Below, in pieces: positions 7,567-9,780 of a stretch of 64,000 bases of DNA. The first letter of the stretch is position 1. The number at the start of each line of letters is the position of its first letter. The notes under the pieces are model-generated. The model saw only the letters and a list, made by a program, of their open reading frames with translations. It was not told where the DNA came from and did not search any database. The position numbers and the translations under genes are program-made. The DNA lies in assembly GCA_964464375.1 (NCBI GenBank), contig CAYXFU010000007.1, positions 43,721 to 107,720 of the forward strand. The letters are read 5' to 3'. Source of the stretch: an uncultured Hyphomicrobiales bacterium. Its GTDB lineage: Bacteria > Bacteroidota > Ignavibacteria > Kapaibacteriales > UBA2268.

Positions 7567-9780
7567 TTATTTGGTTTTACCACTAGAAATTATTTTTCCA
7601 CTTTGATTTGGATAAGCTCCATGACACTGGACGCAGTCCTTGGTATCTGCAATTTTATCAACACCACCCGGATGTACGAATTCCAATCCAGTTGAAGATT
7701 CCTGTACAGGACCGAAAGGTGTTTTCTGATAAGTAATTAAATGGCAGATATTGCAATTCTGCGAAATGACTTTGCCATCATTACTGACATGCTTTCCATC
7801 ATGACATCGGTAACAGCCCGGGCTCTGCATGTGACCATTATTACTTTGAAAATCTCTCCAGTTAACATTCATATTCGGGAAGTAATTTCTTAAATAGATT
7901 TTGTTTAACTGACCAATTGTTTTATTTATAGCATCTTTTTTTGAAATAGCAATTTCAGGATAATTTGTTTTATAGAAATTCCAGATATAACTTTTAATAT
8001 CTTCATAAGATGTTTCACGTGAGCGAACAAAGTTATCCAGTGTCTGAACTCCAATGTTCTTTATAAAAGGCAGAGTTCTGTCAATCATATTAGCGGCTAT
8101 ATACTTATTAATGGTGCTGTTGGGTTGACTGAAAATATGTGATTGTCGATTATGGCAATCAATACAGTCCATTCTTCTCAAATTTGCAGGCTTTAATAAG
8201 TCAGTAGAGAATTTAATTGAAGTATCCTTATAAACAACTTCCTTTCCCGTTATTGTAGATCTAGACTTAACCCAAGGAATAATATTCCTTTTATCATCAA
8301 GTGGTAAATAAGTAATTTCATTTGCTAGATTCATACTCCAATGAATACCGGAATTATTCCCAAATTCAGGACTGCCGCCACCTACCTTGATAAGTAAGCT
8401 ATGTTTGTATTCAGAGTTATTTTCATCGTTGGTAAAAATATCGTAATCTTTTTTTGTTTCGCTGTAAAAATGTTTGGGCAAGTGACACTGCTCGCAAGTA
8501 TTTTGATTTGGTCTCAGGTTTTGAATTGGTGTTGATATTGGTCTGTTAAATTTATTGAACATAACAGAATAAATCTGATAAATACCTGAGATTTTTGCCT
8601 TTTCTTTCCAATCTGCTTCAGGATTAATATGACATTTGACACAACCTACCCTAGAATGCGGGGAATCTAGATATGCTGTATATTCAGGTAGCATTACCTC
8701 ATGGCATACTTTACCGCAGAAAGCATCTGAATCAGTATATTCATAAGCTTTGAATGTCCCAAATACAGAAAGCACAGCTATAACAATAGTTGCAAATGTG
8801 AAAACAATAGTAGCTACCTGATGTTTAGGATTATTTAGATCAATTACAGGTAATTTTTTTGATTTATCTGCCATTTGTAGTAATCTTCTGTTTTCCTTAA
8901 TAGCACCTAATACAATAAGCAGTAATCCGAATATAAGGAAGGTAGGTGTTACAACAAATGTTATAATTCCAAGATAGGGGCTATTTTCTCCAATAAAAAA
9001 TTCAAGCACAATGAGAAATACAACTAATATAAAACTTATTATTGAAATCAATGCACCTGAAAGAGTTGCTGGATTGTAGAAAATTATTGGTATAAATCTA
9101 CCACTCTTCTTGGACTTTTCTCCAGATGTAACCTTTGCTGCTGTAGGTTCTGATGTATGTGCTTCTTCATGCTCTAAATGCCATCCAGTTATCATTGATT
9201 TGAATAATTCACCGATGGTTGAGCCTGTGGTGGCTAGGTAGAGATGACCAAACAAGAACAAGCTTAGGAAAAATCCAATTACGGTATGGAACAAAGCCAT
9301 GGGCCATACACCACCCATACCGAATATTTGATCGGGGGCAGTCTCAGGAAACATCAATAGCCATCCTGAAATAACAACTGCAGGCATCAGGAAGAACATT
9401 ACACCTAAATAAGCTACCTGTTGCATTGGATTGAATTTATTTTCTTTAGTTGTGCTGAAAGGATGGGGTTCGTTAATGAAAATACCGAGTAAATAGTATT
9501 TTAACTGCAATAGCATTCTTTTTACAAAGCCTTTGATTTTAGGTATGTACTGCTTGATATTACCGGTAAATAAGCTGAAGCCAAAGAAAAATAAATAGTT
9601 AAGTGAAAGGAATATTCCGGCAATGTTATGTGAAACCATAGCCCATCTAAATGTAATGAAAGCCGAATTAGGATTGGAATAGTGCAAGCTAAGACCAGAT
9701 ACAATAAGAACGATAAATAGTAGAGCATTGAGCCAGTGCCAGAATCTTAACCATATTGGATATAAATAAATCTTGTTCAT
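7567..9780 (-). CDS. Fusion of di-heme cytochrome b (CbcB-like) and 7-heme NapC/NirT-family ImcH-like quinol oxidase
   Basis: N-terminal four-His cytochrome b (RFWHW, VSHN, LFHT, FGHLY; ENKFNPMQQ). C-terminal NPATLSG..SPYLG..LPVIDLNNPKH..FCGKVCHEVM..SPHSRVGCVKCH..NLRP..TCEQCH; 6 CxxCH plus 1 CxxxCH. Confidence 0.85.
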   Translation of the reverse strand: MNKIYLYPIWLRFWHWLNALLFIVLIVSGLSLHYSNPNSAFITFRWAMVSHNIAGIFLSLNYLFFFGFSLFTGNIKQYIPKIKGFVKRMLLQLKYYLLGIFINEPHPFSTTKENKFNPMQQVAYLGVMFFLMPAVVISGWLLMFPETAPDQIFGMGGVWPMALFHTVIGFFLSLFLFGHLYLATTGSTIGELFKSMITGWHLEHEEAHTSEPTAAKVTSGEKSKKSGRFIPIIFYNPATLSGALISIISFILVVFLIVLEFFIGENSPYLGIITFVVTPTFLIFGLLLIVLGAIKENRRLLQMADKSKKLPVIDLNNPKHQVATIVFTFATIVIAVLSVFGTFKAYEYTDSDAFCGKVCHEVMLPEYTAYLDSPHSRVGCVKCHINPEADWKEKAKISGIYQIYSVMFNKFNRPISTPIQNLRPNQNTCEQCHLPKHFYSETKKDYDIFTNDENNSEYKHSLLIKVGGGSPEFGNNSGIHWSMNLANEITYLPLDDKRNIIPWVKSRSTITGKEVVYKDTSIKFSTDLLKPANLRRMDCIDCHNRQSHIFSQPNSTINKYIAANMIDRTLPFIKNIGVQTLDNFVRSRETSYEDIKSYIWNFYKTNYPEIAISKKDAINKTIGQLNKIYLRNYFPNMNVNWRDFQSNNGHMQSPGCYRCHDGKHVSNDGKVISQNCNICHLITYQKTPFGPVQESSTGLEFVHPGGVDKIADTKDCVQCHGAYPNQSGKIISSGKTK

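Follow-up and report, generated by a model that had tools for sequence, protein, structure and literature searches.

A CbcB-type di-haem cytochrome b fused to a complete ImcH-type quinol dehydrogenase in Kapaibacteriales and their relatives

Three inner-membrane cytochromes, ImcH, CbcL and CbcBA, govern the energy that Geobacter gains at a given acceptor potential, and how cells switch among them, and whether the three interact, is an open question. It is a question on which a 64,000-nucleotide (nt) stretch of DNA from an uncultured member of the Kapaibacteriales bears (GenBank assembly GCA_964464375.1, contig CAYXFU010000007.1, positions 43,721 to 107,720; the whole stretch is called the window below), where one open reading frame (ORF) on the minus strand joins a CbcB-like cytochrome b to an ImcH-like protein. 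Is this ORF a real gene, and what would two quinol-interacting modules do in a single chain? The comparisons described here establish a true fusion, fixed long ago, between a CbcB-type cytochrome b and a complete ImcH-type quinol dehydrogenase, and this suggests that the fused modules act as one machine in electron exchange with the outside. ImcH, CbcL, CbcBA and the cbcB-cbcA fusions of Chloroflexi are known already, and no description of a cytochrome b::ImcH fusion was found in the literature searched, which left out most subscription journals; the fusion is clearly real and moderately surprising. In window coordinates, and with protein positions in amino acids (aa), the gene and its parts are as follows.

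7567..9780, minus strand: CbcB::ImcH fusion gene, ATG start, 737 aa
9169..9780, minus strand: CbcB-type di-haem cytochrome b domain (aa 1-204), four transmembrane (TM) helices, PF01292
9100..9168, minus strand: linker (aa 205-227), polar and Lys-rich, predicted to be cytoplasmic
8752..9099, minus strand: ImcH-type membrane region (aa 228-343), three TM helices
7567..8751, minus strand: ImcH-type seven-haem domain (aa 344-737), CGKVCH plus six CxxCH, predicted to be periplasmic

Pfam searches place PF01292 (prokaryotic cytochrome b561 / Ni-hydrogenase cytochrome b) over aa 7-199 (E 1.4e-26) and PF03264 (NapC/NirT) over aa 319-412, and a hydropathy and motif scan finds seven TM segments arranged 4 + 3. 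TM5-TM7 lie at ~aa 240-343, immediately ahead of C355, with the third of these helices running into haem 1, the CGKVCH motif (C355-H360, nt 8701-8718); the six CxxCH motifs are at 380, 429, 539, 656, 676 and 716. In an alignment of 32 full-length fusions the b domain has invariant His at positions 33, 51, 165 and 179, and H15 is retained in at least 90% of the sequences; His15/His179 and His51/His165 are candidate b-haem ligand pairs and His33 is an additional invariant residue. The Lys plus Arg counts of the loops (2/8/6/7 inside, 1/0/0 outside) fit a predicted topology of N-in, C-out, which would make the linker cytoplasmic and the haem domain periplasmic, and in which both modules would retain their native orientation. 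The initial annotation, made from the sequence without database searches, had described a four-His di-haem cytochrome b at the N-terminus, a polar linker devoid of start codons, and three TM segments with CGKVCH and six CxxCH in the C-terminal half, and each of these elements was recovered, the first by the domain search and the conserved His residues, the second by the codon-by-codon reading described next and the third by the motif and hydropathy scan.

The linker, EEAHTSEPTAAKVTSGEKSKKSG (aa 205-227), lies in a stretch that has no in-frame ATG, GTG or TTG from M196 to L244, and both alternative frames across it carry stop codons. Its start coincides with the end of stand-alone CbcB, as judged by alignment to the CbcB of locus L012 from a deltaproteobacterial metagenome-assembled genome (MAG), and the unfused ImcH relatives begin, with MKQRFPDHFYNP..., exactly where it ends (...SGRFIPIIFYNP); the region of aa 228-343 matches the first ~125 residues of unfused ImcH-type proteins. 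In homologues the linker measures 23-68 residues of unrelated sequence, bounded by the conserved W200 and N236. An AlphaFold2 (AF2) model of the fusion, built from 32 sequences, gives a predicted local distance difference test score (pLDDT) below 50 for residues 205-230; overall (pLDDT 66.8, predicted template modelling score (pTM) 0.42) the model is confident for the b domain only, the haem domain and the packing being unreliable. A Foldseek search with this model accordingly finds the fold of the b domain only, in FdnI (1kqf_C, TM-score 0.69 on target) and in the Hyd-1 cytochrome b (6g94_A). The sole match of a PDB sequence search with the fusion was NrfH (2j7a_C, E 0.07), a protein with one TM helix and four haems that weakly resembles the ImcH region around haem 1, and no structure of ImcH or CbcBA was found there.

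Could the joined frame nevertheless be an artefact, arising from a lost stop codon, a frameshift or an assembly chimera? A homologue search covering 5.8 billion proteins identified ~79 protein clusters, 686-761 aa in length and 43-90% identical to the window protein, that contain both domains; by source name they come from Ignavibacteria, Kapabacteria/Kapaibacteriota, Chloroherpetonaceae and Bacteroidota, and their database labels are generic ('cytochrome b/b6 domain-containing protein' or 'thiosulfate reductase cytochrome b subunit'). Next in the ranking come unfused NapC/NirT-type proteins of ~496-500 aa that share ~52% identity over the C-terminal two thirds. A profile-free exhaustive search of 1.84 billion representatives gave 3,686 relatives, 722 of them at E <=1e-30, and nearly all of the best 150 representatives have three TM helices, CX3CH and 5-6 CxxCH. 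Since the frame is open in ~79 independent protein clusters, these comparisons make it very unlikely that a sequence error in this window produced the fusion. Two short proteins point the other way. In P0378 (locus L089; 73% identical, 4.6x coverage) an in-frame TAG occupies the codon of W200 (TGG in the window; L089:6598-6600), with the frame continuing into the linker, and P0379, of 225 aa, terminates within the linker; both nest among the fusions and represent either errors or secondary breaks, the TAG of L089 being a sequencing error or a natural nonsense variant. The view that this is a true fusion rather than a gene pair that lost a stop codon, which the initial annotation had favoured, has thus gained the ~79 full-length clusters in addition to a second half that has no start codon of its own.

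At 50% identity the fusions fall into a single cluster (P0043), to which only a distant 771-aa protein, P0173, has to be added. When the ImcH domain is analysed by neighbour joining (94 sequences, 494 columns), the Ignavibacteriota-type fusions are monophyletic in 97/100 bootstraps and sister to unfused Ignavibacteriota ImcH, with the Geobacter clade elsewhere and P0173 far off. The cytochrome b tree likewise holds the same fused sequences together, with matching subclades, and places unfused CbcB-like proteins of Kapabacteria and Bacteroidota closest to them. Homologues are not always split: the two-domain clusters make up one clade in both trees. The congruence of the trees of the two halves makes a single ancient fusion, followed by co-inheritance of both, the simplest reading of the sequences.

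The C-terminal half contains every element of the published definition of ImcH, namely three TM helices, an atypical CX3CH beside the membrane, six CX2CH and a NapC/NirT-like region (PMC4251993, PMC6295460). As comparison anchors, ImcH orthologues from MAGs of Geobacter, Geobacteraceae and Desulfuromonadaceae, obtained through a genome scan with the family alignment, stood in for GSU3259. They are 498-520 aa long, share the motif set and end in ...GKH or ...KKH, which resembles the ...PGKH end deduced from published ImcH primers; a 28-nt string from the published GSU3259 primers had no exact match in the genome contigs, part of the primer being probably non-genomic. Window aa 234-722 align end-to-end (~490 aa) with nine of these MAG orthologues at 36-39.5% identity (E 1e-114 to 1e-136), and the half is 49% identical to the unfused ImcH of Ignavibacterium album. 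For ImcH homologues outside the Geobacter group 31.5-49% identity has been reported (PMC6295460), and the value found here falls within that range, so the C-terminal half groups with ImcH; all of those homologues have three TM helices save two with one (Zhong & Shi).

The residues around haem 1 agree with this placement. Geobacter ImcH has H137 and Q179 as haem-1 ligands and conserves E127, K173 and Y188 at the proposed menaquinol site (bioRxiv 10.1101/2023.05.03.539133). With a constant offset of +223, E127, H137, K173, Q179 and Y188 of the G. sulfurreducens protein correspond to D350, H360, K396, Q402 and F411 of the fusion, and among 33 fused sequences Q402 is present in all 33, K396 in 30 (Arg in the other three), Asp or Glu at 350 in 32 and Tyr or Phe at 411 in 32. 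Where GSU3259 has Tyr (Y188) the window has Phe, although Tyr is found in 26/33 fused relatives. Judged by its complete signature, its identity to Geobacter-clade ImcH and these residues, the ImcH module of the fusion looks active. It differs from GSU3259, a stand-alone protein of a monocistronic gene, in carrying a 4-TM di-haem cytochrome b at its N-terminus.

The affiliation of the N-terminal half was established with proteins from L012 and Labilibaculum in place of GSU0593. Within L012:6001-12244 lie an imcH orthologue and, ~3 kb downstream of it, a cbcBA-type operon. The operon has a divergent sigma-54 activator bearing a receiver domain, as well as a response regulator, a seven-haem cytochrome of 350 aa whose C-terminal TM helix contains a His, and a 215-aa PF01292 protein, the genes of the last two overlapping by 4 nt; in G. 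sulfurreducens the imcH and cbcBA loci are, by locus tag, far apart. The L012 layout fits cbcBA as published by Joshi et al. (bioRxiv 10.1101/2021.04.15.440034). The window b domain is 40% identical to L012 CbcB (L012:11597-12244) over 207 aa (E 1e-45), the alignment reaching the last residues of CbcB. Stand-alone b proteins 50-64% identical to the window domain occur in Kapabacteria, Ignavibacteriaceae and Bacteroidota, among them those of Labilibaculum (51-52%), where the b gene follows a 320-aa multihaem gene and which is listed among the holders of cbcBA (Joshi et al., bioRxiv 10.1101/2021.04.15.440034). The names CbcB-like and ImcH-like, proposed for the two halves from motifs, are upheld in the one case by the identities to L012 CbcB and to the Labilibaculum proteins, and in the other by end-to-end alignment, signature and site residues.

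A different assignment of the b domain, as the membrane anchor of a thiosulfate or polysulfide reductase, is raised by the top NCBIfam model over aa 2-201, the PhsC thiosulfate-reductase cytochrome b (E 4.9e-52). The score of 177 bits lies under the cutoff of 204, however, and no gene for a molybdopterin (PhsA) or 4Fe-4S (PhsB) subunit was found in the window cluster. Whereas PhsC, FdnI and HydC have molybdo- or NiFe-enzyme partners, the cluster around the fusion has neither. Taken as one explanation, artefact or misassigned reductase anchor is very improbable and, given the open frame in the full-length clusters and the second half lacking a start, largely refuted.

Immediately upstream of the fusion lies a third module.

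9777..11306, minus strand: CbcA-like partner, signal peptide, 13 CxxCH, single C-terminal TM helix

The stop of this gene and the start of the fusion gene share 4 nt. The C-terminal helix (aa 456-488, nt 9843-9941; ...TRNIYLDILSLSLLGLTIGGIGLH479GLLRWYFRK) contains a conserved His479 in the motif LH..LRWYF, and an anchor helix with a conserved His is a feature of CbcA (bioRxiv 10.1101/2021.04.15.440034). The anchor resembles that of L012 CbcA (...GHGTFRFLTRK), and the remaining sequence is weakly similar to seven-haem CbcA. With 13 CxxCH rather than seven, the partner appears from its sequence to share the topology of CbcA yet to be no close member of that family. A multihaem gene of 474-510 aa abuts or overlaps the fusion start in 8/8 contexts (the window, the P0001 contig, L001, L002/L003, L085, L086, L087 and L088), and all seven partners with readable DNA, those of the window and six relatives, show 13 CxxCH together with the H..(L/I/M)RWYF anchor. 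Because a multihaem gene stands directly upstream in all eight contexts, with 13 haems and CbcA topology in the seven that could be read, the conserved unit is CbcA-like + CbcB::ImcH, a unit of three modules that the initial annotation had not recognized as such, and since in L002/L003 the partner and fusion genes are found alone amid housekeeping genes, these two genes form its conserved core.

The pair has the same layout as CbcBA (GSU0593-0594), in which a c gene is followed by a b gene with overlapping stop and start, but CbcA has seven haems and CbcB ends alone, whereas the window partner has 13 and the b subunit runs on into ImcH. Gene fusions of cbcB and cbcA exist in Chloroflexi (Joshi et al., bioRxiv 10.1101/2021.04.15.440034); compared by description, CbcB is there, as here, fused to a multihaem cytochrome c, which is CbcA in that case and ImcH in this one. 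That the C-terminal half of the window protein might itself be CbcA, as in the Chloroflexi fusions, was considered and rejected, the fused half having the N-terminal 3-TM/CX3CH signature of ImcH and the C-terminal anchor being located in the upstream gene.

The fusion and its partner belong to a minus-strand cytochrome cluster that spans from ~15.4 kb down to 4.7 kb. The other elements of the cluster are the following.

4650..4680, minus strand: terminator-like hairpin, 14-bp stem and T run, right after the CbcL-like gene
4706..7552, minus strand: CbcL-like gene, 19 CxxCH followed by a C-terminal PF01292 domain, 14 nt downstream of the fusion
11475-11843 and 12022-12360, minus strand: two monohaem class-I cytochromes c
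12410-12955, minus strand: Rieske-type lipoprotein, twin-arginine (Tat) signal RRDFLKKAG, Rieske-like CSH...CPRH motif
12946-14178, minus strand: monohaem protein with a predicted beta-barrel-like body, 410 aa
14311-15423, minus strand: 5-6-haem lipoprotein with an MtrC/MtrF-like match

The genes of 11475..15423 probably encode periplasmic and outer-membrane partners, and their order is repeated in the P0001 contig, L085 and L089. A Rieske-type gene is found in some fusion-bearing clusters and missing from others; the Pfam Rieske score is 16.4 bits for the window protein and 31.3 bits for its L085 orthologue. In the protein of 12946-14178 a signal peptide is followed by a single CSNCH and a long body with aromatic residues at its end (...FQIHVWY), an architecture that by sequence is Cyc2-like, or 'cytochrome-porin', in layout. 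It has no Pfam match, and all 87 relatives are 'hypothetical proteins' from Ignavibacteria/Kapabacteria, none of them supporting a Cyc2 name. The two tandem cytochromes c are paralogous, with long identical stretches (...KKHGVAFKGTDDE...), and a perfect hairpin of 12-bp stem with a T run lies between them at 11950-11979.

The CbcL-like protein has, in addition to PF01292, a formate-dehydrogenase gamma match at aa 618-902, and its N-terminal multihaem c domain and C-terminal HydC/FdnI-like di-haem b domain place it in the CbcL/MtoC/MtrH family, in which haem numbers run from 3 to 23 (PMC6295460). Its 19 haems compare with nine in Geobacter CbcL (GSU0274). CbcL is a precedent for b-type and c-type quinol oxidoreductase modules in a single chain, but there a soluble-type c-haem domain precedes the b domain, whereas in the fusion the b domain precedes a membrane-anchored quinol dehydrogenase, and the b domain of the fusion and that of the CbcL type are barely alignable. 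The gene is present in the P0001 contig, split in L086 and absent from L002, L085, L087 and L088, and this variation among relatives puts it outside the conserved core. Its annotated TTG start at 7552 is probably wrong, since an ATG five codons on (MKKILQ..., ~nt 7537) precedes a signal-like helix. The hairpin at 4650-4680 is likely to mark the 3′ end of the transcription unit; in a consensus scan the promoter and terminator counts of the window were no higher than in shuffled sequence.

The cluster is flanked by batA/batB-type and batD/batE-type genes (1855-4665, 15705-18250), with batA/VWA, TPR and PGA_cap genes on one side and batD and TPR/SH3 genes on the other, an arrangement also seen in the P0001 contig and L089, and the presence of bat genes on both sides places the cytochromes inside an apparent aerotolerance (Bat) operon. 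GC content is uniform across the region. The remainder of the window holds housekeeping genes and genes for cargo of the type IX secretion system (T9SS), typical of the Fibrobacterota-Chlorobiota-Bacteroidota (FCB) group. Two adjacent minus-strand genes at 49221-55443 encode ~1,030-aa proteins with legume-lectin-like beta-barrel domains, to our knowledge unusual in bacteria, one adding an IgGFc-binding domain and the other a T9SS C-terminal sorting domain.

How, then, might the three modules work? For the two quinol-interacting modules in one chain, the initial annotation had suggested potential-dependent switching or a coupling like that of the Q cycle. In Geobacter, potential-dependent routing uses separate, separately regulated proteins. 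The reading that we favour, with as much belief as doubt, is that the unit forms a composite menaquinol:cytochrome c oxidoreductase in which two quinol sites share a c-haem network, the route of electrons being set by the potential of the acceptor. The three modules would form a single inner-membrane complex of 8 TM helices, 2 b haems and 20 c haems, which would move electrons between menaquinol and periplasmic or outer-membrane cytochromes. One quinol site, that of ImcH, would lie next to haem 1 at the periplasmic face and would release protons outward at no cost to the membrane potential; quinol oxidation by Geobacter ImcH has been measured as electroneutral (bioRxiv 10.1101/2023.05.03.539133). 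The other, that of CbcB, would by analogy with FdnI, HydC and PhsC be situated near the cytoplasmic-side b haem, and electrons from it would travel outward through the membrane, a route already suggested for thiosulfate reductase and, when the acceptor potential is very low, for CbcBA of Geobacter, a bc-type quinol oxidoreductase that operates below about -0.21 V. Both sites would feed the common c-haem network, the poise of which, and thus the acceptor potential, would pick the route.

Several observations weigh against such a two-site, potential-routed enzyme. Geobacter ImcH, which oxidizes menaquinol and is needed to reduce extracellular acceptors of high potential, and CbcBA serve opposite extremes of potential and cbcBA is tightly regulated, so a fixed 1:1 fusion is not obviously to be expected, and neither in nor beside the 4.7-15.7 kb cluster is there an ORF for a sigma-54 regulator of the BccR type that stands beside the cbcBA operon. 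The packing between the domains is unreliable in the AF2 model, given its pTM and the low confidence of the haem domain, and the CbcB quinol site is positioned by analogy only. The conserved residues at the ImcH site might be kept for structure, given that a haem ligand is among them, and the monohaem beta-barrel-like and Rieske-type neighbours could equally serve electron uptake.

The variable and disordered linker is in keeping with a simpler role, in which only one quinol site works, the other module is a haem wire or scaffold, and the fusion fixes stoichiometry and co-localization. Fusion and fission of haem modules are common among multihaem cytochromes (PMC11492766), and L090, from the same phylum, has a plain split pair of the CbcBA-like kind: a partner of 13-haem size and a 254-aa b gene are followed by recA, with no ImcH, which argues that each part can work alone. 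The ImcH-site residues and the four b-haem His are kept, however, down to 43% identity, and retention at both sites across such divergence argues for selection on both; tethering alone is thus an unlikely account of the fusion.

The association of ImcH with di-haem b modules extends beyond the fused clade. Of the 78 unfused imcH loci for which enough upstream sequence was available, 43 have a CbcL-type c::b gene that ends <=700 bp upstream on the same strand, a count that is a lower bound because tblastn was run with a single query. These loci (within L013-L080) belong to Acidobacteriota, Ignavibacteriota, Bacteroidota and others, examples being I. album L075:3743-5923 (13 haems + b) and L013:3805-5778 (11 haems + b), and a pairing of CbcL-type and imcH genes was not found spelled out in the literature consulted. 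The haem part of the I. album protein is 39% identical to the 13-haem partner of the window, whereas the b domains of the two belong to different subfamilies (E 2e-4, short stretches only). A shift of the gene boundary from the I. album arrangement, c13::b then ImcH, was for that reason rejected as the origin of the fusion, exchange of the b module being more likely than a moved stop codon.

A second kind of b::ImcH fusion is represented by P0173 (L084:1413-3728; metagenome contig Logan SRR22507543_87387), which has the same order of b then ImcH, seven TM helices and CX3CH + 6 CxxCH. Its gene sits between that for a [NiFe]-hydrogenase large subunit (PF00374, E 7e-185) and that for a HycI-type maturation protease, and its b domain scores 143 bits against the 121.5-bit cutoff of the hydrogenase-b equivalog TIGR02125. 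Since the ImcH domain of P0173 branches far from the Ignavibacteriota fused clade, the two represent independent events, and fusion of a cytochrome b to ImcH has arisen at least twice, with different b subfamilies. ImcH thus pairs recurrently with di-haem b modules.

The cytochrome b subunits of hydrogenases and formate dehydrogenases, such as Wolinella HydC and E. coli FdnI, are quinone reductases, and P0173 occupies the position of the cytochrome b in its [NiFe]-hydrogenase operon. Both points favour a built-in redox loop, in which the 13-haem partner would take electrons from periplasmic donors, the b haems would reduce menaquinone at the cytoplasmic face and ImcH would re-oxidize the menaquinol at the periplasmic face, moving 2 H+ per 2 e- across the membrane by local quinone cycling. 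Possible parts for electron uptake are present in the window cluster, in the form of the monohaem beta-barrel-like protein, the Rieske-type protein and the small c cytochromes. The window b domain, however, is of PhsC/CbcB type rather than hydrogenase type, genetics puts Geobacter CbcBA in quinol oxidation and not quinone reduction (Joshi et al.), and a loop from c haems to c haems requires a drop in potential from the 13-haem input to the 7-haem output, one that nothing in these sequences documents. A redox loop is accordingly conceivable but doubtful for the window fusion.

The single chain combines conserved residues at a P-side quinol site with a di-haem b that spans the membrane, which also brings to mind a bifurcation like that of the Q cycle. 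The quinol would be oxidized at the haem-1 site of ImcH, with one electron passing to the c-haem chain and the other entering the nearby b haem on the periplasmic side and crossing the membrane to a cytoplasmic quinone site, as in bc1. The Rieske-type gene of some clusters would suit this scheme, but several fusion-bearing loci are without one. The AF2 model yields no geometry for it, no PF01292 b module is known to bifurcate, and the hydrogenase-b::ImcH fusion and the adjacent CbcL-type genes are explicable without it; a bifurcating enzyme is quite improbable.

Returning to the composite oxidoreductase, with its two quinol sites on one c-haem network, the lineage of the window hard-wires two of the three Geobacter modules into one polypeptide and retains in the operon a partner of CbcA type, often accompanied by a CbcL-type gene. 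The hydrogenase-b::ImcH fusion P0173, together with the CbcL-type genes that directly precede imcH in more than half of the unfused loci sampled, provides comparative evidence for ImcH working alongside di-haem b modules. The wider proposal, that ImcH-type quinol dehydrogenases may generally work in complex with a CbcB, CbcL or hydrogenase-b module, and that the fusion is a 'Rosetta stone' for energy coupling within one complex, whether by a redox loop or by bifurcation of the Q-cycle kind, is speculative and, in our estimate, rather unlikely. If it were true, a device of this kind in a complex of ImcH and b would set the H+/e- ratio of extracellular respiration and could explain how Geobacter-type cells 'sense' the potential of the acceptor at the inner membrane. 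The fusion itself is a natural single-chain target for cryo-electron microscopy and complementation tests, and it would be a useful marker of extracellular electron transfer when Ignavibacteriota and Kapabacteria are annotated.

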